Positions 10,338 to 20,343 of a DNA stretch of 64,000 nucleotides are shown here, piece by piece. The stretch lies in NCBI RefSeq assembly GCF_057098645.1, contig NZ_CM169472.1; one strand, 5' to 3'. Under the pieces are notes generated by a model that was not told the origin of the DNA, made no database searches, and saw only the letters and a list, made by a program, of their open reading frames with translations. The translations under genes were made by a program, and so were the position numbers. Each line of letters begins with the position of its first letter. Positions within the stretch are counted from its first letter, which is position 1.

Positions 10338-10910
10338 TTACACAGACTGACGTGATGCCAGTTGCGCACTTTTACGCGAAAAAATCATGTTCTGCGCAGG
10401 GGTGAATTTTTCACGGCTGTCATCCACCGAAGCCGCGTCAGGCCTGAATCCGATGGTCGTTAAAATGTCGCTATCCTGTGCGGAATAATTAATTTTTTCA
10501 CCCTTCGCAAGCCAGGACAGGAGGGCTTCACGCAGGGCATCTGTGGCACGCTGTATGGCACAGTTTCGGGCAATGGCCGTCAGCTCACTGTAGCCCATCA
10601 GCTCCGGTGCCAGTGCCGCCGCCAGTGCTGTGCCGTGCTGCTGCATAAAATCATTCAGCCGATCGCGGATGCTGATGTGCTGAACGGCTTCATGCGAACG
10701 AATATAACGACCGGCGGCCTGATTCACCTGCCATTTTCTGACTTCGATAATATTGCGTAATTCGTCCAGGCGACTGACGTTTCTGCCTTCTCCTGACAGA
10801 AGCCGCAGATATTCCTGTTCGGCCGCAGCCAGCTCATTTTTGCGTTGCAGCCATGCTGCTTTGTTATTCTGACAGGTGTCAAAGGCCTGCTGTAAGGCTG
10901 TGCTTTCCAT
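10338..10910 (-). CDS. psu: P4 Psu-like polarity suppression / capsid decoration protein
   Basis: 190-aa ORF MESTALQQAFDTCQNNKAAWLQRKNELAAAEQEYLRLL...; size and position (last gene of the sid-delta-psu operon, next to cos) match P4 Psu. Confidence 0.8.
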   Translation of the reverse strand: MESTALQQAFDTCQNNKAAWLQRKNELAAAEQEYLRLLSGEGRNVSRLDELRNIIEVRKWQVNQAAGRYIRSHEAVQHISIRDRLNDFMQQHGTALAAALAPELMGYSELTAIARNCAIQRATDALREALLSWLAKGEKINYSAQDSDILTTIGFRPDAASVDDSREKFTPAQNMIFSRKSAQLASRQSV

Positions 10911-10983
10911 CGTTATCTCTTTCTCATCATGCTGAAGAATAAAAATACGGTGTGCGGCGACGGCCGGGGTTAACCGGCAGCCC

Positions 10984-11484
10984 TCATTCCAGACGCAGCG
11001 AATATGATTGTGTTTTTAACCGTACTGGCGGCAGTTCCTGTTTTTCATGCAGGCTTTCTGCCAGTTCGTCCGGCGTGACCGGGCGGACAATGAAGCGGTT
11101 GATGGTCTGAAGCGTTTTAAACACCAGACCACAGCCCGGATCCGTGCACACATAAAAACGCTCGGTGACTTCCTGAGACAGACGCCGCGATGTTCTTGAC
11201 AGCGCAAGGCCTTTACATCTCCGACAACAATATCCGGTAACAAGCATTCTTTTCGGGCGCTTCATGCTACCGGAGGCTGACGTCAGTGAATCGCGGTATC
11301 TCTGTTTGCCTGAAATGTATTCCATTCCTGAATCTTTACAGTCAGAGAAAAAGCTTTCACTCGCTTCAAATGTCGCAGAGCAATAAATATTCCGGCACTG
11401 TGCAATCATTATCTTGGTGCCATCGTCCATGAAATGTGCGCGACGGGTGTGAGCAACATGTCCACACGACGGGCAGTAAATCAT
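10984..11484 (-). CDS. delta: P4 Delta-like zinc-finger late-gene transcriptional activator (Ogr/Delta family)
   Basis: 166-aa ORF MIYCPSCGHVAHTRRAHFMDDGTKIMIAQCRNIYCSATFEA... with two Ogr-type CxxC..C..C zinc-finger repeats; overlaps sid stop (ATGA). Confidence 0.85.
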   Translation of the reverse strand: MIYCPSCGHVAHTRRAHFMDDGTKIMIAQCRNIYCSATFEASESFFSDCKDSGMEYISGKQRYRDSLTSASGSMKRPKRMLVTGYCCRRCKGLALSRTSRRLSQEVTERFYVCTDPGCGLVFKTLQTINRFIVRPVTPDELAESLHEKQELPPVRLKTQSYSLRLE

Positions 11485-12215
11485 GACAGCAGTCCTCTGG
11501 CCTTAAGCACTGCTCCCTGCTGGTCTATTTTGTCCTGCCACACCTTGCGCTGTGCCGGTGTGCCTGCCACCTCATAATCCATGTGCGGGAGTGTTGCCGC
11601 TGACAGTCCGGTCAGCCGGAGAACCGGCTCGCCGGTGAGGCTGATTTGCATCTGTTTTATTTTCTGTTCCAGCGATGATTTCACCTGCTGCATGACAGCT
11701 TTATCGGGTGCGACGTAGCCCTGATGCCCGGTGGTGTTGGCGAGCGGATTTTCCTGTACCAGAATGCTCAGATGCATTGCCCGGACAAGCGCCTCACAGG
11801 TTTCATTCAGGGCGTGTTCCAGCTCATGCTCTGCATACAGACTCAGAAGGTGATGATGTGCCTTCCGGTAGGCGGTGGCCGTGCTGTCACACGCCCCTTT
11901 CAGGCGTTCACGTTCGAAATTCAGCACCACGGCCAGATTGTCATATTCCTGTACCAGCTCCCGGCGTGCCACGCGCTCAATGTGGCGCTGTTTCAGCTCG
12001 TCGCTCAGGACACCACCGGCTGCACGAAAGGCCGTGCGCCAGTCGTCAGCGTCGTTTCCGTCGGCCTGCGCCAGCGCATTTTTTTCCTGCTCTGCCCGTT
12101 CAATGGCCGTGACGGTCTCATCCATCAGTCGGGCGTTCTCAAGGTGGGCGGCTCTGGCCTTTTCCAGTTGTGCCAGTGCGGGTTGCAGATATTCAGGGAT
12201 GGTGTTGTCAGACAT
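11481..12215 (-). CDS. sid: P4 Sid-like capsid size determination protein
   Basis: MSDNTIPEYLQPALAQLEKARAAHLENARLMDE..., about 244 aa, coiled-coil-rich; first gene of the sid-delta-psu operon. Confidence 0.8.
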   Translation of the reverse strand: MSDNTIPEYLQPALAQLEKARAAHLENARLMDETVTAIERAEQEKNALAQADGNDADDWRTAFRAAGGVLSDELKQRHIERVARRELVQEYDNLAVVLNFERERLKGACDSTATAYRKAHHHLLSLYAEHELEHALNETCEALVRAMHLSILVQENPLANTTGHQGYVAPDKAVMQQVKSSLEQKIKQMQISLTGEPVLRLTGLSAATLPHMDYEVAGTPAQRKVWQDKIDQQGAVLKARGLLS

Positions 12216-12287
12216 TTTCCGGCTCCTCGTCACTTCAGGTTAAGAAAATTGTGACGTACACCGGACAACAACACGACGCATTGCAGA

Positions 12288-12305
12288 TGTGCCAGCCCTG
12301 ACACA
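12288..12305. promoter_or_regulatory. TGT-N12-ACA dyad; candidate Ogr/Delta activator site of the sid late promoter
   Basis: tgtgccagccctgacaca matches the P2/P4 late-promoter activator consensus TGT-N12-ACA; centre about 80 bp upstream of the sid start codon. Confidence 0.5.
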
Positions 12306-12384
12306 GGAGACTCATCCTCAGACCGGCAAGCCAGGAAAAGGTCGCAGGAAAAACCGGCTTACTGTTTGTTTTTTTATATTTTAC

Positions 12385-12478
12385 TGTTCACCTCTGTTCA
12401 CCATAAGAAAAAAGATAAGTAATACAGTAAGTTAAATGGTGAACAATCGCAGTAATGACTGTTCACCGTCTGTTCACC
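12385..12478. repeat. Cluster of TGTTCACC octamer iterons (P4 ori-like)
   Basis: Five copies of TGTTCACC or its complement within 95 bp (12385, 12395, 12438 reverse, 12460, 12471); P4 alpha protein binds this octamer at ori and crr. Confidence 0.6.
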
Positions 12479-12756
12479 CGTTGATGGACTTTTTGTGCTG
12501 TTTACTACTGTTTATTTTTATTAATTCACTGAAATAAATAAGAAAAAACAATTTGTATTTCACTATAATTTTTTCCAGCTCCTTCCAGAGCGTTTTAAAG
12601 CTATCTGGCGCTGATATACAAAAAATGCACAGCCATTGTAAGGCTGCCGGAACAAATCCCCCCTGTTGCGTCTGCCAAAAATATTCACAAAATAAAGCGC
12701 TACCCGAAGCCGGACGGACTTATCCGGTGCTGTATGGACATTAACGAGGTAGCCCG

Positions 12757-13023
12757 ATGCAAGCTGTTTTTTCTTCCCCGTCTCCCGCCCCTGTGACGCC
12801 ACTGATGCCGCTGCCGGACATCACGCAGGAGCGTTTTTTACGTCTGCCGGAAGTGATGCACCTGTGCGGCCTGTCACGCTCGACCATCTATGAACTCATC
12901 CGTAAGGGGGAATTTCCGCCGCAGGTGAGTCTTGGCGGTAAAAATGTGGCCTGGCTGCACTCTGAAGTCACCGCATGGATGGCCGGACGCATTGCCGGAC
13001 GCAAACGGGGGTACGACGCATGA
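12757..13023 (+). CDS. AlpA/Vis-like small DNA-binding regulator
   Basis: 88-aa ORF containing [27 protein letters not shown], an AlpA/Vis-type HTH. Confidence 0.6.
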
Positions 13024-13610
13024 TAGTGCCCGCTCTGCAAAAACTCCCTTTTTCTGGCTTGCCTTTTTCCGGCATTTGCGGATATAGTTTTTCCGCTGCC
13101 GCAAAATCGGCAGCCGGGCGTGAGAACCCGTGTAGCTCGAAGGCGACATATGACGCGCCATGCGTCTTTTTTTGTGTCGCAATCAACGCCACAGAGCGCC
13201 AGATTATGGTGTGGCGTGTGGTTTGCCGTGCAGGTATGATCCTGTTCGCAATCGCATGTTATGCCACTGAGTCAATGGTAGCTCAGGCGGGGCAGCCTCC
13301 GGGCTGGCCGGTATTCTTCGAGGCCGGTATTCTCACCCCCGTCTGGGCTATCGCCATCGAGCGTGAGAACTCCGGCGATAGCAGTTATTTGCTACTCGAA
13401 GGAGGCTGCCTTATGGCTACAACCCTTACCCCCTCACACCCTGAATTTGTCTTTGTGTTTGCGGCTGTCCGTCGCGCAGACCGTCATCCCCGTATCTGCA
13501 TGCTTCGCACCGTCGCCGGTGATGAACGCAGCGCCCGCCGTTCCCTTGTCCGTGACTATGTGCTCTCCCTTGCTGCCCGTCTGCCGGTGGTGGAGGTGTC
13601 CCGTGCGTAA
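13020..13610 (+). CDS. Hypothetical protein of the P4-like element
   Basis: 196-codon ORF whose ATG overlaps the vis-like stop (ATGA coupling); no recognisable motif. Confidence 0.35.
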
Positions 13611-13915
13611 TAAAAGCCCCTCAGACCGTCTCAGCGCGTCATGACGCCCGTGAACACCTCAGCATTGAGGCTTACCATAAGCTCAACCGCGCCAGCGCCG
13701 TATCCCGGTTTGTTGCAAAATGGCATCTGAATCGATCGCAGTTTGGCATTCGAATCGATCATGATTTGGCATCCATCTCCGATCACAGTTTGGCATCACA
13801 ATCGATCACGATTTGGCATGCTTCCGATCATTGATTGGCATCCTGCCAGTCACTCCGGGAATTAACTCTTTTCACCACAGTCTCCATTGCCGTGTTTAAA
13901 CCAGTGGAGACGTCA

Positions 13916-15481
13916 ATGTCCAGAAAGAGAAAATCCAGGAGCACTATGGAAACCTGTTTTAAGATCCTTCAGCTCAAGTTCGACAAGAAGCTGACTAACC
14001 GTTGTATCGGACTGACGTTACACATCAGCGCCTCAACCGTTTTTGAGGTTCTTGCCCGCTTCAAAGCCTCTTCTCTGTCATGGCCATTACCTGCTGATAT
14101 ATCCCATGACACGCTGGAGAAACTCATTTTTCCGCCCAAAGACACCTTTGCATCAGAGCTTGTAATGCCTGACATGTTGTACTTCGATACGGAAATGAGA
14201 AAACCAGGTGTGACGCGGCAACTGTTGTGGATGGAATACAAGGCACAGGCGGGTAACAAAGCGATGGGATACTCGCACTTCTGCCGTTGCTACCGGGAGT
14301 GGAAAAAAACGCGACGTCTCTCCATGCGCCAGGAGCATCGTGCCGGCGAAAAGCTTTTTATCGACTTCTGTGGTCCTACGGTTCCTGTTATTAATCCGGA
14401 CACCGGTGAGATACGCCGCGTGGCAATCTTCGTGGCCGTAATGGGGGCGTCCAACTATACCTACGTTGAAGCGTGCGAAGGTCAGGACATGATGTCATGG
14501 TTAAATGCCCACAGCCGTTGCCTGACCTTCCTGGGCGGCGTACCGAAGCTGCTCATCCCCGATAACCTCAGAAGCGCAGTGAAAAAGGCCGATCGATATG
14601 AGCCTGTCATCAACGACAGTTATCAGGCACTGGCTGAGCACTATGGCACGGTTATCATCCCGGCCCGACCACGCAAACCTAAAGATAAACCAAAAGCAGA
14701 AAACGGCGTCCTCATCGTTGAACGATGGCTTCTTGCCCGCATCCGTAATGAAACCTTCCACACGCTCAGGGCGCTGAATGCGCGCCTTAGGGAGTTACTG
14801 ACAGACATGAATAACCGGCCAATGAAGGGGTACGGCAATCAAACCCGTGCAGAACGCTTCCGCATACTGGATGCGCCAGCACTCTCTCCGCTGCCTCTGG
14901 CACCTTATGAATACACGGAATACAAAGCTGTGAAGGTTGGCCCTGACTACCACGTTGAATATGCCCGTCACTGGTACTCCGTTCCACACGAACTGGTCGG
15001 TCAGCGTCTGTCACTGAAGGCGGGGCAGTCGGTGGTACAGCTCTGGCACAAGGGGCAGTGTGTGGCGCAACATCCGCGCAGCACACATGAATATAAACAC
15101 ACAACCAATCCGCTTCACATGCCAGAGCGCCACCGGCAGCACGGGACATGGACACCGGAACGCCTGATCGAGCAGGGAAAACGTACGGGCCCGTCCACAG
15201 GCCGGGTGGTTGAATCCATGCTGAAGGCAAAACCCCATCCGGAACTGGCTTATCGTGCAGTTCTGGGGCTGCTGGCACTTCAGAAAAAATACGGCCCGGA
15301 ACGGCTGGAAAAGGCCTGTTACGTTGCCCTGCACTATAACGCCCCTGACAGACGCTTTATCGACAATCTGCTGCGTCACCATCGGGAGAACCTGGAGCTT
15401 CCATTATCCCGCCAGGGCGAACAACATCCGGCATATGCTTCAGAGCATGAAAACCTGCGTGGTCCGGGCTACTACCACTGA
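13916..15481 (+). CDS. istA: IS21-family transposase IstA
   Basis: MSRKRKSRSTMETCFKILQLKFDKKLTNRCIGLTLHISASTVFEVL... N-terminal HTH followed by a DDE integrase-like core; GGAG RBS. The ORF track extends to 13835, but the internal ATG is the better start. Confidence 0.8.
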   Translation: MSRKRKSRSTMETCFKILQLKFDKKLTNRCIGLTLHISASTVFEVLARFKASSLSWPLPADISHDTLEKLIFPPKDTFASELVMPDMLYFDTEMRKPGVTRQLLWMEYKAQAGNKAMGYSHFCRCYREWKKTRRLSMRQEHRAGEKLFIDFCGPTVPVINPDTGEIRRVAIFVAVMGASNYTYVEACEGQDMMSWLNAHSRCLTFLGGVPKLLIPDNLRSAVKKADRYEPVINDSYQALAEHYGTVIIPARPRKPKDKPKAENGVLIVERWLLARIRNETFHTLRALNARLRELLTDMNNRPMKGYGNQTRAERFRILDAPALSPLPLAPYEYTEYKAVKVGPDYHVEYARHWYSVPHELVGQRLSLKAGQSVVQLWHKGQCVAQHPRSTHEYKHTTNPLHMPERHRQHGTWTPERLIEQGKRTGPSTGRVVESMLKAKPHPELAYRAVLGLLALQKKYGPERLEKACYVALHYNAPDRRFIDNLLRHHRENLELPLSRQGEQHPAYASEHENLRGPGYYH

Positions 15482-15497
15482 CAGAAGGAACAACAGT

Positions 15498-16253
15498 ATG
15501 AGTGATAACCTGTTAAACAAACTGACCCAACTGAAACTCCCGGCGATGGCCGGGAGCCTGATACGGCAGCGGGAAACGCCTCAGACCTACGACGAACTGT
15601 CGTTCGAGGAAAGGCTGACGCTGCTGGTTGATGACGAGCTTCTGAGCAGGGAAAACAGCCGTGTGGCACGGTTGAGAAAAAATGCCGGCCTGAAATACCA
15701 GGCAACACCGGAAGGGCTGCGCTATCCGGCCTCAAGAGGTCTGCGGGCTGAACAGATGAGAGAACTGCTGAACGGCCACTACATAACCCACAGGAAAAAC
15801 CTGCTGATAACCGGTCCGACAGGATGTGGCAAGAGCTGGATAGCCAATGCGCTGGGCGAACAGGCATGTCGACAGAAACACAGCGTCCGGTACTGTAGAA
15901 CCGGGCGATTACTGGAACAACTGGCTCAGGGACGTGTTGATGGCAGCTGGCTGAAATATCTGAAACAGTTGCAAAAAATACAGGTTCTAATCCTGGACGA
16001 TCTGGGGCTGGAACAGTTAAGTAACGCCCAGTGTAATGACCTTCTGGAGCTCATAGAGGATCGTTACGGACAAAGCAGCACGATAGTGGTAAGCCAGTTC
16101 CCGGTAGATAAATGGCATGGTCTGATGGAGAACCCAACAACAGCAGATGCCATCCTGGACAGACTGGTACATAACTCACACCGAGTGGTCCTTCAGGGAG
16201 AGTCACTGAGGAAAAATCCCCCGGTAGTGGAAAGCAGCGAAAAAACGCGTTAA
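15498..16253 (+). CDS. istB: IS21-family helper ATPase IstB
   Basis: MSDNLLNKLTQLKLPAMAGSLIRQRE...; Walker A GPTGCGKS and Walker B ILDDLG. Confidence 0.85.
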   Translation: MSDNLLNKLTQLKLPAMAGSLIRQRETPQTYDELSFEERLTLLVDDELLSRENSRVARLRKNAGLKYQATPEGLRYPASRGLRAEQMRELLNGHYITHRKNLLITGPTGCGKSWIANALGEQACRQKHSVRYCRTGRLLEQLAQGRVDGSWLKYLKQLQKIQVLILDDLGLEQLSNAQCNDLLELIEDRYGQSSTIVVSQFPVDKWHGLMENPTTADAILDRLVHNSHRVVLQGESLRKNPPVVESSEKTR

Positions 16254-16525
16254 AAAGCGGTAGAAAAAGTTAAGTTCCCGGTTGATCGAATGGATGCGAA
16301 TCGCTGATCGGACTTCGATGCCAATCCGTGATCGAATAGAGCGGAATACGCAGTTTGTTGGGGGTGATTTGATTCACCGTGAACTCTCCGGCCTGCATCA
16401 GCTCTACATTCCGCATATTTTCAGTTACCTGAATGAAGATATTGATTTTGTGCTGAATGAACTGAAAGCCAAAGGCCTGTGCCGCGATTTTCTCGCCCAG
16501 CAGAAAGACCGGGGAGACAGGACGC

Positions 16526-16981
16526 ATGTTTGATTTTCCCCAGCCCGGTGAGATTTACCGTTCTGCCGGTTTTCCCGATGTGGCCGTGGTCGGCATTCTG
16601 GAAGACGGTATTCCGTGGGAAATGCCGTACCGCTGCCCGGACATTGTCTGGAACCCGTACCGCCGTAAATTCAGTATCCTTGTGCGTATCCTCGCTGACG
16701 GGCGCACCACAGACATCCCGCTGGGGCGTTTTCTGCGGGAATTTACCTGTGACCGTCCTGACCTGTTTAAACGCAGCCCCGTAAACCGGCATGCGGTACT
16801 GAAAGAAATGGCCGGAGACCCGGAATTACAGAAATGGCGGGAGAAATATCTGGATATTTACCCGCAGGACCCTGTTCCGGTCAGCCGGGCGGCACCGGTG
16901 GCGCGGGAATGGCGGGAAATTCCCCGCACGGAGCCTGACCCGGAAATCACCCCGGATAACAGTTACCGCAATTATCTGTAA
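16526..16981 (+). CDS. Conserved hypothetical protein of P4-like elements (151 aa), upstream of alpha
   Basis: ORF MFDFPQPGEIYRSAGFPDVAVVGILEDGIPWEMPYRCPDIVWNPYRR...; ATG overlaps the stop of a short upstream frame (ATGTTTGA). Confidence 0.5.
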   Translation: MFDFPQPGEIYRSAGFPDVAVVGILEDGIPWEMPYRCPDIVWNPYRRKFSILVRILADGRTTDIPLGRFLREFTCDRPDLFKRSPVNRHAVLKEMAGDPELQKWREKYLDIYPQDPVPVSRAAPVAREWREIPRTEPDPEITPDNSYRNYL

Positions 16982-17116
16982 TTAAAAAACGACACCCGAA
17001 AAATTAAATGTGCGTATTCGCGCAGGGATACGCACGTCTTCAGGAGACGCAGATATGCCTTATCAGTTAATGCAACCGGCACGGAATGCAGTCATCTGTC
17101 ACAGGGAGGAAAACAA

Positions 17117-17437
17117 ATGAAAACACCCTTACCGCCCGTCTTACGCGCTGCCCTTTACCGTCGCGCTGTCGCCTGTGCCTGGCTGACCGTGTGCGAACGT
17201 CAGCACCGCTACCCGCATCTCACCCTTGAGTCACTGGAAGCGGCCATCGCCGCTGAGCTGGAAGGCTTTTATCTGCGCCAGCACGGTGAGGAAAAAGGGC
17301 GTCAGATAGCCTGTGCCCTGCTGGAAGATTTAATGGAATCCGGCCCCCTGAAGGCCGCGCCGTCGCTGTCCTTTCTCGGGCTGGTTGTGATGGATGAACT
17401 CTGTGCCCGTCACATAAAAGCGCCGGTACTGCACTGA
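17117..17437 (+). CDS. Small hypothetical protein of the P4-like element (106 aa)
   Basis: ORF between the 151-aa ORF and alpha; GGAGG RBS. Confidence 0.45.
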
Positions 17438-17451
17438 AGGAGAACAACACC

Positions 17452-19785
17452 ATGAAAATGAACGTAACCGCCACCGTCAGCCATGCGCTCGGCCACTGGC
17501 CGCGTATTCTCCCGGCGCTGGGGATTCAGGTGCTGAAAAACCGTCATCAGCCCTGTCCGGTCTGTGGCGGGAGTGACCGCTTCCGTTTTGATGACAGGGA
17601 GGGGCGCGGCACCTGGTACTGCAATCAGTGTGGTGCCGGTGACGGCCTGAAACTGGTTGAAAAGGTGTTTGGTGTCTCCCCGTCCGACGCGGCCGCAAAG
17701 GTGGCTGCCGTGACCGGCAGCCTGCCCCCGGCTGACCCGGCAGTGACGGCTGCCGCCGGTGCTGAAACAGACGCTGCCCGGAAGAACGCCGCCGCACTGG
17801 CACAAACCCTGATGGCGAAAACCCGTCCCGGAACCGGTAACGCCTACCTGACCCGCAAGGGCTTTCCCGGCCGGGAATGCCGGATGCTGACCGGCACACA
17901 CAGATCCGGTGGCGTGAGCTGGCGTGCCGGTGACCTTGTGGTGCCACTGTATGACGACAGCGGCGAACTGGTTAACCTTCAGTTAATCAGTGCTGACGGC
18001 CGTAAGCGCACCCTGAAAGGCGGACAGGTCAGGGGCACCTGTCACACCCTTGAAGGACAGAATCAGGCCGGAAAACGTCTGTGGATAGCGGAGGGATACG
18101 CGACCGCACTTACCGTACATCACCTGACCGGTGAAACGGTGATGGTGGCGCTTTCTTCCGTGAACCTCCTTTCTCTGGCCAGCCTTGCCCGGCAGAAGCA
18201 TCCGGCCTGTCAGATTGTCCTTGCCGCAGACCGTGACCTCAGCGGTGACGGCCAGAAAAAAGCCGCCGCAGCCGCAGATGCGTGTGAGGGCGTTGTTGCC
18301 CTGCCGCCGGTCTTCGGTGACTGGAATGATGCCTTCACGCAGTACGGCGGGGAGGCCACCCGTAAGGCCATTTACGATGCCATCCGGCCACCGGCTGAAA
18401 GCCCGTTCGACACCATGAGCGAAGCAGAGTTTTCCGCCATGAGTACCAGCGAAAAGGCCATGCGTATCTATGAGCATTACGGCGAGGCGCTCGCGGTTGA
18501 TGCCAACGGCCAGCTTCTGTCCCGTTATGAAAATGGTGTCTGGAAGGTGCTGCCGCCACAGGACTTTGCCCGGGATGTGGCCGGGCTGTTTCAGCGTCTG
18601 CGCGCGCCGTTCTCCTCCGGGAAGGTGGCCTCCGTGGTGGACACCCTGAAGCTGATTATTCCGCAGCAGGAAGCCCCCTCCCGCCGCCTGATTGGCTTTC
18701 GTAACGGCGTGCTCGACACGCAGAACGGCACGTTCCACCCGCACAGTCCGTCACACTGGATGCGCACCCTGTGCGATGTGGATTTCACCCCGCCGGTGGA
18801 CGGTGAAACGCTGGAGACCCACGCCCCCGCGTTCTGGCGCTGGCTTGACCGTGCCGCCGGTGGCCGTGCGGAAAAACGCGACGTGATTCTGGCCGCACTG
18901 TTTATGGTGCTGGCAAACCGCTATGACTGGCAGCTCTTTCTGGAGGTGACCGGTCCCGGCGGCAGCGGCAAAAGTATCATGGCCGAAATAGCCACCCTGC
19001 TGGCCGGTGAGGATAACGCCACGTCGGCCACTATTGAGACGCTGGAATCCCCGCGTGAACGTGCCGCGTTAACTGGCTTCTCACTGATACGCCTGCCGGA
19101 CCAGGAAAAATGGAGCGGCGACGGTGCCGGACTCAAGGCCATCACCGGCGGCGATGCGGTGTCCGTGGACCCGAAATACCGGGATGCGTACTCCACGCAT
19201 ATCCCGGCGGTGATTCTGGCCGTGAACAATAACCCGATGCGCTTCACCGACCGCAGCGGCGGCGTGTCACGCCGGCGGGTGATTATTCACTTCCCGGAAC
19301 AGATAGCCCCGCAGGAGCGCGACCCGCAACTTAAGGACAAAATCACCCGCGAGCTGGCGGTCATCGTGCGTCACCTGATGCAGAAGTTCAGCGACCCGAT
19401 GCTCGCCCGGTCACTGCTTCAGTCCCAGCAGAACTCAGACGAGGCACTGAACATCAAACGGGATGCCGACCCGACGTTTGATTTTATCGGCTATCTGGAA
19501 ACCCTGCCGCAGACCAGCGGCATGTATATGGGGAACGCCAGTATCATCCCGCGTAATTACCGTAAATACCTCTATCACGCCTATCTGGCCTACATGGAGG
19601 CAAACGGCTACCGGAATGTACTCAGTCTGAAAATGTTCGGGCTGGGGCTGCCGGTGATGCTGAAGGAATACGGGCTGAATTACGAGAAGCGCCATACCAA
19701 ACAGGGGATACAGACCAACCTGACGCTGAAAGAGGAAAGCTACGGCGACTGGCTGCCAAAATGTGACGACCCTGCAACAACCTGA
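17452..19785 (+). CDS. alpha: P4 alpha-like primase-helicase
   Basis: 777-aa ORF; N-terminal zinc-binding primase region (CPVCGGSDRFRFDD..WYCNQCG), central P-loop GPGGSGKS; same length as P4 alpha. Confidence 0.85.
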   Translation: MKMNVTATVSHALGHWPRILPALGIQVLKNRHQPCPVCGGSDRFRFDDREGRGTWYCNQCGAGDGLKLVEKVFGVSPSDAAAKVAAVTGSLPPADPAVTAAAGAETDAARKNAAALAQTLMAKTRPGTGNAYLTRKGFPGRECRMLTGTHRSGGVSWRAGDLVVPLYDDSGELVNLQLISADGRKRTLKGGQVRGTCHTLEGQNQAGKRLWIAEGYATALTVHHLTGETVMVALSSVNLLSLASLARQKHPACQIVLAADRDLSGDGQKKAAAAADACEGVVALPPVFGDWNDAFTQYGGEATRKAIYDAIRPPAESPFDTMSEAEFSAMSTSEKAMRIYEHYGEALAVDANGQLLSRYENGVWKVLPPQDFARDVAGLFQRLRAPFSSGKVASVVDTLKLIIPQQEAPSRRLIGFRNGVLDTQNGTFHPHSPSHWMRTLCDVDFTPPVDGETLETHAPAFWRWLDRAAGGRAEKRDVILAALFMVLANRYDWQLFLEVTGPGGSGKSIMAEIATLLAGEDNATSATIETLESPRERAALTGFSLIRLPDQEKWSGDGAGLKAITGGDAVSVDPKYRDAYSTHIPAVILAVNNNPMRFTDRSGGVSRRRVIIHFPEQIAPQERDPQLKDKITRELAVIVRHLMQKFSDPMLARSLLQSQQNSDEALNIKRDADPTFDFIGYLETLPQTSGMYMGNASIIPRNYRKYLYHAYLAYMEANGYRNVLSLKMFGLGLPVMLKEYGLNYEKRHTKQGIQTNLTLKEESYGDWLPKCDDPATT

Positions 19786-19792
19786 CCCACCT

Positions 19793-19817
19793 GACCGGCA
19801 TCTGCCGGTCTTTTTTT
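19793..19817 (+). terminator. Intrinsic terminator downstream of alpha
   Basis: gaccggc-atct-gccggtc hairpin followed by TTTTTTT. Confidence 0.7.
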
Positions 19818-19830
19818 ATCCCGACATCCC

Positions 19831-20125
19831 CCGAAGGTGAACAATCCACTGTTCACCCTTCACCGTATATTCACCCGTTATCACACTGAAATTAAAAGAG
19901 AAAAACGAAAGGTGAACAGTGTGAACAATCAAATCAAAAAAAACTTTTTTCTCCCTGCGTGATTTTCAGTGCAGGGGACTAATCGCCGGTATGAGTCACA
20001 CCGGCAGAATACCGGAGGTGAAGAATCGAATGTTCACCCTTCACCCATTATTCACCACCTATCATACTGAAATAAAAGGAGAAAAAAGAAAGGTGAACAG
20101 TGTGAACAGTTCTTTCGAAAAAAAA
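19831..20125. repeat. crr-like region: two direct repeats of about 110 bp, each with TGTTCACC/GGTGAACA octamers
   Basis: Near-identical units at about 19831-19945 and 20015-20125 (..ggtgaa..aatgttcacccttcacc..tcatactgaaataaaaggagaaaaa..aaaggtgaacagtgtgaaca..). Confidence 0.6.
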
Positions 20126-20321
20126 TTTTTTATGTGGATAAAAGATGCACTGGTTTGGATCCGAGCTACGGATCCAAACTTACTGATTAAAAATGATTTA
20201 ACTTTCCGATTTATTGATGGGCTGAAAATAGATTGGTCAGAAAAACAGTGGGGGCACAAAAGGGGGCATATTTCATTGTTGTGTTTTATTATTTGTTTTT
20301 TATCATTAACTTATTTTGATG

Positions 20322-20343
20322 TTTGAGTCCGGCCTTCGCACCA
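20322..20343 (+). repeat. attR: partial duplicate of the leuX 3' end
   Basis: tttgagtccggccttcgcacca versus leuX ttcgagtccggccttcggcacca. Confidence 0.7.

Follow-up and report, generated by a model that had tools for sequence, protein, structure and literature searches.

In the 64 kb stretch of DNA analyzed here (the window), the epsilon gene of a leuX-integrated P4-type satellite prophage was almost certainly interrupted in codon 38 by transposition of a 2639-bp insertion sequence (IS) of the ISSso4 type. The IS is a known element, common in E. coli and complete here, and the outcome is an ordinary gene knockout.

The whole satellite prophage occupies positions 6008–20343 on the + strand, as delimited by alignment to P4, and measures 14,336 bp including the IS, or 11,691 bp once the IS is removed. 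It adjoins the tRNA-Leu(CAA) gene leuX (5923–6007), with att core repeats at 5984–6007 and 20321–20343; the leuX site is unoccupied in E. coli O145 RM9872, whose backbone shows 99.98% identity over the left flank. Integrase, psu, delta, sid, alpA/vis, epsilon, and alpha occur in P4 order together with cos and att, as expected of a P4-type satellite, with epsilon present only as a disrupted gene. The core genes are backed by Pfam and PHROG matches, and every P4 gene except epsilon is at full length. Upstream of the IS, all on the + strand, are orf88/vis of the AlpA family (12757–13023; Pfam Phage_AlpA, 7e-21) and, directly upstream of epsilon, an Icd-like/Ash-family open reading frame (ORF) (13020–13610; Pfam Phage_ASH, 2e-21), both also annotated in uninterrupted relatives. 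This side of the element also carries an intact P4 immunity region (13082–13358, + strand) that comprises the C4/CI antisense RNA (13271–13358), its a1b1 target (13082–13134), and isrK (13095–13172), all on the + strand, with Rfam matches above gathering scores (RF01695, 74.3 bits; RF03163, 50.4 bits; RF01394, 69.2 bits). The operon continues downstream of the IS, co-oriented with it (+ strand), with intact homologs of orf151 (16526–16981; phrog_10748, 1e-101; 98.4% nucleotide identity to P4 and P4 annotation) and orf106 (17117–17437; Pfam DUF5375, 2.9e-63; P4 ORF106 annotation), followed by an intact alpha primase-helicase of 777 aa (17452–19785; Pfam Zn_Ribbon_Prim, Toprim_3, D5_N, and Pox_D5), the same length as P4 alpha. 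The first-pass annotation had placed the insertion between the vis-side and alpha-side ORFs of a P4-like early region, and that placement holds: the IS lies in the left operon, between vis/orf88 and orf151-alpha.

On sequence comparison, the insertion and its target-site duplication are proven by empty sites, because the two flanks are joined, with a single octamer, in P4 and in 961 complete E. coli genomes. In the window, the octamer GTTTGTTG occurs on the + strand only at 13708–13715 and 16353–16360, with 2637 bp separating the two copies. In the 961 genomes the uninterrupted site reads CCCGGTTTGTTGGGGG, with the flanks in one piece; the junction of E. coli HS4 has this same sequence, with one octamer, and matches the restored site base for base. 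Aligned to P4, both window flanks abut at nt 8061–8068. The comparison with uninterrupted P4-like elements that had been proposed as a check has thus yielded the reconstructed pre-insertion sequence (P4, HS4, and the 961 genomes).

The extent of the IS and of the duplication was determined from other copies of the element. Among the 30 alignments listed to other IS copies, none starts after 13714 and none ends before 16352, and all eight fetched copies are 2639 bp long, start with TGCAAAATGG, and finish with GAATACGCA amid unrelated flanks. Because these ends are constant in the aligned and fetched copies, we assign the element to 13714–16352 (+ strand; 2639 bp; TG…CA termini). The last two bases of the octamer are therefore the TG terminus of the IS, and the true target-site duplication is the hexamer GTTTGT, with its left copy at 13708–13713 and its right copy at 16353–16358, both delimited by this same boundary evidence. 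The additional TG match is explained by the two target bases that follow the hexamer, which by coincidence, at a chance of 1 in 16, are the same as the IS terminus. At the eight fetched copies the duplications are 6 bp in five cases and 5 bp in two, and one copy has none. Staggered cleavage of the target followed by gap repair would have duplicated the hexamer.

Two other readings of these boundaries were considered. A 2637-bp element with a CAAAATGG terminus and a genuine 8-bp duplication of GTTTGTTG, the arrangement in the first-pass annotation, would accommodate the identity of the two octamers and the 4–8 bp range reported for IS21-family duplications. However, positions 13714–13715 are included in all 30 listed alignments to other copies, the eight fetched copies are 2639 bp from TGCAAAATGG with duplications of 5–6 bp where present, and an element of 2637 bp would be without the conserved TG terminus that mirrors CA at the opposite end; this arrangement is very improbable and was rejected on the evidence of the eight copies. 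The identical flanking octamers reported earlier are therefore real, whereas their 8-bp duplication becomes one of 6 bp and the length becomes 2639 bp with invariant TG…CA ends. That the octamers are coincidental, and the IS an old inherited component of these elements, was raised beforehand as an a priori possibility and has nothing further in its favor. It has next to no probability: the site is uninterrupted with a single copy in P4 and the 961 E. coli genomes, and unrelated replicons carry copies that are 100% identical to the IS in the window. Coincidence of the octamers was rejected on the empty sites (P4, HS4, the 961 genomes, and E. coli O157:H7 BB24-1), and relatives with the IS at this site but without a duplication, or with two GTTTGT copies without the IS, were not seen. 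No evidence speaks against the insertion as such.

The IS encodes an intact DDE transposase, istA (13946–15481, + strand; 511 aa; NCBIfam NF033546, 284.7 bits against a cut-off of 160; Pfam rve and Mu-transpos_C_2), with its start as annotated in identical copies, and an intact AAA+ helper ATPase, istB (15498–16253, + strand; 251 aa; NCBIfam NF038214, 257.8 bits against a cut-off of 200; Pfam IstB_IS21, 1e-60). The two genes are co-oriented and separated by 16 nt, which is the gene pair characteristic of the IS21 family. The left end of the IS (13714–13842, + strand) combines a terminal inverted repeat with five direct repeats of ~18 nt, found by motif search as copies of CGATCnnGATTTGGCATC at 13733–13842 with a spacing of 22–24 bp; this motif has eight matches in the window, against 0.67 expected by chance for the whole window. 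The right end (16283–16352, + strand) has a terminal inverted repeat, one good inverted end-repeat (16317–16334, matched on the − strand), and one degenerate copy. The left and right ends align with each other, and both the TG…CA inverted repeats and the multiple repeats in the two ends are as in the IS21 family; the end repeats are putative IstA binding sites. IS21-family elements duplicate 4–8 bp of target and are about 2–2.7 kb long, ranges that the 6-bp duplication and the length of 2639 bp fit. The original call of an IS21-family insertion is borne out by the intact istA and istB profile matches and by the uninterrupted sites. We name the element cautiously as 'ISSso4 or a near-identical isoform', because the name rests indirectly on the one that PGAP gives to the identical IstB, WP_001282653.1 ('IS21-like element ISSso4 family helper ATPase IstB').

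The insertion is recent: 100% identical copies of the IS exist in other genomes, and none of the 5426 complete E. coli genomes shares the insertion. Near-complete copies of the IS occur in 224 of these 5426 genomes. The window copy has no differences over 2639 bp from those in the E. coli GF60 plasmid pGF60-C and in GPEC1040, and 0–4 nucleotide differences over that length from eight E. coli copies. Among the 5426 genomes the best coverage was 93% and none spanned both junctions, and no exact match to the left junction was found in metagenome contigs. The earlier suggestion of a relatively recent insertion thus agrees with the identical copies, the intact ORFs, the perfect duplication, and the absence of the allele from the 5426 genomes.

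Restoring the junction identifies the interrupted gene: the resulting protein of 95 aa is 100% identical to P4 epsilon, which is annotated as 'helper derepression protein', and matches Pfam PF25738 (Derepression; 2.9e-50) over positions 2–95 of 95. Neither epsilon nor orf151 is represented by an NCBIfam model. Epsilon derepresses the P2 prophage (PMC7552001; PMC8628076). The 5′ fragment (13603–13713, + strand; alignment to HS4 and P4) runs from the GTG start, codon 1, to the first two bases of codon 38, and the 3′ fragment (16359–16533, + strand; match of the restored protein) from the last base of codon 38 to codon 95 plus the stop. The epsilon TGA overlaps the ATG of orf151, the 151-aa gene; as in P4, the two genes share an 8-nt overlap. 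Thus, the small early gene that the first-pass annotation suspected of having been split can now be named as P4 epsilon. Within the 5′ fragment, an A6 run is reduced to A4 at 13612–13615 (codons 4–5), a −2 frameshift that throws the native GTG (13603) out of frame; the frame read from this GTG stops at 13642–13644. All of 975 E. coli genomes lack the A4 allele, and this private frameshift leaves the 5′ fragment without a usable start codon. The open frame described earlier, from the left flank through the restored junction to 16533, does exist, but it has lost its start codon to the private 2-bp deletion. Split in codon 38 and frameshifted, epsilon is here a pseudogene and not a functional member of PF25738, and it would be null through two lesions, the IS and the −2 frameshift.

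The relative weight of these two lesions admits other accounts, which together fall somewhat below an even chance: epsilon may already have been dead by frameshift when a neutral IS arrived, or, conversely, the frameshift may be a sequencing error and the IS the sole lesion. The A6-to-A4 change falls within a homopolymer and might reflect an error of sequencing or assembly. The 2-bp deletion takes away the only epsilon-frame start codon, the A4 allele is absent from the 975 genomes, and both lesions are private to the lineage, so either order is compatible with the data. Against these accounts, epsilon has otherwise no amino-acid change relative to P4 epsilon, which argues that neither lesion is old, and an intermediate allele with one lesion was not found among the 5426 genomes. 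A further proposal is that the IS re-wires the operon, with an outward promoter in its right end or the istAB promoter driving orf151-orf106-alpha independently of P4 immunity. The co-orientation of istA, istB, and alpha is consistent with this, as is the lack of any + strand terminator-like site between istB and orf151, such that transcripts started in the IS could reach alpha. However, no outward + strand sigma-70-like promoter was found at 16150–16560, even at the relaxed threshold of 8 of 12, such consensus scans being weak evidence either way; at the standard threshold, 12300–17500 contains no + strand sigma-70-like promoter except a site at 13059. In the IS21 family, the transposase promoter is weak except where two ends abut, and constitutive alpha in a prophage is expected to be harmful. 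We therefore regard re-wiring as unlikely. It is quite unlikely, too, that the two private epsilon lesions reflect selection to disarm the induction of P2-type prophages, which would turn the satellite into a host-retained defense island answering only an incoming helper, or that the co-oriented IS provides immunity-independent alpha expression; the disarming reading builds on the intactness of the other satellite genes and of the restriction-modification cargo.

Under the preferred reading of a simple knockout by a transposing IS, orf151, orf106, and alpha would now lie another 2.6 kb away from the left-operon promoters of P4, and their expression would depend wholly on transcripts that read through the co-oriented IS and cross two untranslated gaps of ~300 nt each. 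Because expression would need this read-through, some polarity on orf151-orf106-alpha is likely, and alpha may have been uncoupled from its native promoter, as the first-pass annotation suggested. Against polarity, the IS has no predicted intrinsic terminator on the + strand, so transcription may continue to alpha almost undiminished, and Rho-dependent polarity could be relieved by P4 Psu. P4 epsilon mutants still multiply on P2 lysogens via delta-mediated transactivation, and loss of epsilon therefore need not abolish mobilization. P4 packaging depends on genome size (PMC9942202), and the increase from 11.7 kb to 14.3 kb would take the element away from the ~11.6 kb that is efficiently packaged in P4-size capsids; no upper size limit was found in the papers examined. 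Read this way, the satellite is probably impaired in mobilization. Its integrase, immunity RNA, and sid-delta-psu operon are retained, as is the type II restriction-modification cargo.

The result matters little beyond annotation: the locus is a leuX P4-type prophage with an epsilon pseudogene, for which the exact pre-insertion sequence is given, and the annotation is corrected to an IS of 2639 bp and a duplication of 6 bp. The satellite is probably impaired in the derepression of helper prophages and oversized for P4-type capsids. In surveys of P4-like elements, calls of 'core gene present' can mask genes disrupted by an IS, and the Phage_ASH profile, sometimes used for 'epsilon', matches the adjoining Icd-like ORF and not the true derepression gene.

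The IS itself shares its gene pair with ISSso4, an IS21-family element under an ISfinder name that was first named from Shigella sonnei. ISSso4 has been reported from chromosomes of S. sonnei as well as from E. coli plasmids, among them pCT and pMCR-E2899 (PMC6361801; PMC9927407; bioRxiv 10.64898/2026.03.18.712784). There is no known difference between ISSso4 and the window copy, and only the insertion site is new. With P4 (NC_001609), the window element has in common the order vis/orf88, CI RNA region, epsilon, orf151, orf106, and alpha, as well as the integration at leuX and the 8-nt epsilon/orf151 overlap. The two are co-linear from cos to attP at 96–98% nucleotide identity, whereas their integrases share only 83%, and in place of the gop-beta-cII cargo of P4 the window element has its type II restriction-modification system, which includes a controller protein. 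Epsilon is intact in P4 but interrupted by the IS and frameshifted in the window. The leuX prophage of E. coli O157:H7 BB24-1 (NZ_CP038402.1) has the same att site, integrase, restriction-modification cargo, and core genes, and it aligns end to end with the window element minus the IS (11,691 bp; 98.76%). Unlike the window element, the BB24-1 element has no IS, a single GTTTGTTG, and an intact epsilon (WP_001244670.1) with the A6 run.

The DNA bracketed by two copies of GTTTGTTG, whose sole + strand sites in the 64-kb window are 13708-13715 and 16353-16360 (2637 bp between copies), encodes istA (13946-15481, + strand, 511 aa; NCBIfam 'IS21 family transposase', 284.7 bits, cut-off 160) and, in the same orientation, istB (15498-16253, + strand, 251 aa; NCBIfam 'IS21-like element helper ATPase IstB', 257.8 bits, cut-off 200; Pfam IstB_IS21, 1e-60). 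The motif CGATCnnGATTTGGCATC is repeated in both ends of the element, with five direct copies at 13733-13842 and one inverted copy at 16317-16334; eight matches occur in the window versus 0.67 expected by chance. All IS21-family defining features that were tested were found, and IstB is identical to a protein that PGAP names 'IS21-like element ISSso4 family helper ATPase'. The ISfinder element ISSso4 has been described in Shigella sonnei and on E. coli plasmids (PMC6361801; PMC9927407; bioRxiv 10.64898/2026.03.18.712784). The element is a known insertion sequence (IS), of ISSso4 type within the IS21 family.

When window positions 13600-16470 were compared by megablast with 5426 complete E. coli genomes, near-complete IS copies were recovered in 224 of them, and none of the best 30 alignments starts after 13714 or ends before 16352. 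Eight copies were retrieved, all in unrelated flanks; each is 2639 bp long, starting TGCAAAATGG and ending GAATACGCA, and the window IS has no differences from two of them and 1-4 from the remaining six. Based on these shared ends and this length, the window IS occupies 13714-16352 (2639 bp), and the true transposition duplication is the 6-bp GTTTGT (13708-13713 and 16353-16358). The retrieved copies are flanked by duplications of 6 bp (five of eight) or 5 bp (two); the last has none and is probably rearranged, since two different prophage genes are joined across its flanks. The first-pass annotation described an 8-bp duplication around a 2637-bp element; the octamers are indeed identical, but the eight copies correct both lengths, and the apparent octamer arises because the two target bases that follow the hexamer happen to match the TG with which the IS invariably begins.

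The placement of an IS21-family insertion in a P4-like early region is borne out by the profile matches and by empty sites, the latter from the comparison with uninterrupted P4-like elements that the first-pass annotation had proposed. A 1200-bp query joining the flanks with one octamer copy was covered in a single piece in 961 E. coli genomes (best identity 99.4%), and the junction in E. coli HS4, CCCGGTTTGTTGGGGG, is the same as the reconstruction. Against phage P4 (NC_001609), window 20343-16353 aligns with P4 4078-8068 and 13715-10174 with P4 8061-11624, so that both flanks abut on a single P4 octamer (8061-8068). Without the IS and one hexamer, the element measures 11,691 bp and aligns end-to-end, at 98.76%, with the prophage at leuX in O157:H7 BB24-1, where GTTTGTTG occurs once. 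The alternative raised in the first-pass annotation, that the octamers match by coincidence, is rejected by these empty sites.

In uninterrupted relatives the insertion site lies within a 288-nt CDS annotated 'derepression protein', the product of which is 100% identical to P4 epsilon (95-aa 'helper derepression protein') and gives a full-length match to Pfam PF25738 (Derepression; 2.9e-50). Epsilon inactivates the repressor of the P2 helper prophage, leading to prophage induction (PMC7552001; PMC8628076). The IS follows base 2 of epsilon codon 38; the 8-nt overlap of the orf151 ATG with the epsilon stop (16526-16533) is the same as in P4. At codons 4-5 (13612-13615) the window has AAAA versus AAAAAA in P4, HS4, and BB24-1, and the native GTG (13603) frame therefore runs into a TGA at 13642-13644; no ATG, GTG, or TTG start codon occurs upstream of the IS in the frame carrying the rest of epsilon. 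This frameshift, independent of the IS, could be a lineage-private second lesion or a homopolymer sequencing error: the A4 allele was unmatched at ≥99% among 975 E. coli genomes with the segment, the best match (98.8%) differing by exactly the 2-bp gap. Both lesions are recent, because epsilon is otherwise without amino-acid change relative to P4. An 83-codon hybrid ORF (16282-16533) begins at a TTG in the right IS end and continues in frame into epsilon residues 37-95; its translation seems unlikely, as no Shine-Dalgarno-like sequence precedes the TTG.

The insertion allele was absent from the 5426 complete E. coli genomes by megablast and had no match in the metagenome contigs searched. Despite this, the case is an IS knockout of an ordinary kind, recent and specific to this lineage; the IS type, the disrupted gene, and the P4-type satellite, a well-studied kind, are already known. 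The main first-pass reading was correct in that an IS21-family element recently inserted into a small early gene and split it, and we add the gene name, the 6-bp duplication, the 2639-bp length, and the extra frameshift.

Epsilon is likely null, and derepression of a resident P2-type prophage by the element should therefore fail. P2 lysogens still support the growth of epsilon mutants, via delta-mediated transactivation, and mobilization of the element may thus be reduced rather than abolished. The IS has placed orf151, orf106, and alpha, which run in the same direction as istAB, 2.6 kb farther from the left-operon promoters; the first-pass annotation raised the possibility that alpha has been uncoupled from its native promoter. 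No terminator-like site was predicted on the + strand inside the IS, and a scan around its right end gave no outward sigma-70-like promoter even with a relaxed threshold; expression of orf151-orf106-alpha therefore probably relies on read-through, with Rho-dependent polarity possible in the two stretches left untranslated, 13645-13945 and 16254-16525. With the IS, the prophage genome is 23% above the ~11.6 kb said to be best packaged into P4-size capsids (PMC9942202).

A published survey of P4-like satellites used Pfam Phage_ASH (PF10554) as its 'epsilon' marker (PMC8628076, Methods). In the window, PF10554 matches a 196-aa Icd-like ORF (13020-13610) and not true epsilon (PF25738; 13603-16533), so such a survey would call this element epsilon-positive though epsilon is destroyed.

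The leuX site is empty in E. coli O145 RM9872, whose identity to the window is 99.98% across 6 kb on the left side of the prophage and 99.93-99.97% on the right. Directly right of attR lies a large defence island (20400-55000) that O145 strains share co-linearly; in the corresponding O145 region, RefSeq annotates a restriction endonuclease that binds phosphorothioated DNA, type II Zorya (zorA2, zorB2, zorE), a member of the STY4851/ECs_5259 family, and several DEAD/DEAH and UvrD helicase genes of very large size. A second IS (IS5-like ISKpn26 family, ~1.19 kb, ~60094-61285) lies between nanC and fimB, where regulatory sequence of fimB is located; O145 RM9872, otherwise 99.9% identical, lacks this IS, which occupies the same site in some other strains (e.g., E. 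coli H15).

The 14,336-bp prophage (6008-20343) adjoins leuX, a tRNA-Leu(CAA) gene (5923-6007). The attR core (20321-20343, TTCGCACCA) is imperfect versus attL/leuX (5984-6007, TTCGGCACCA), with one base missing and one C/T difference; judged from these repeats, excision would nonetheless regenerate leuX from the attL copy. The element encodes a P4-type integrase (83% nucleotide identity to P4 int), psu, delta, and sid (- strand), vis/orf88, and an immunity region (C4/CI RNA 13271-13358; target 13082-13134), followed by the Icd-like/Ash-family ORF, the interrupted epsilon, orf151, orf106 (DUF5375), and alpha (777 aa). All genes but epsilon are equal in length to those of P4. At the variable integrase-psu hotspot, where P4 carries gop-beta-cII, the window element instead has a complete type II restriction-modification system as cargo (7536-10021), in which a controller (C) protein (7536-7817) is followed by a restriction endonuclease (7912-8730) that matches PADLOC REase_II at 5.5e-198 and, on the - strand, by an m5C methyltransferase (8768-10021).
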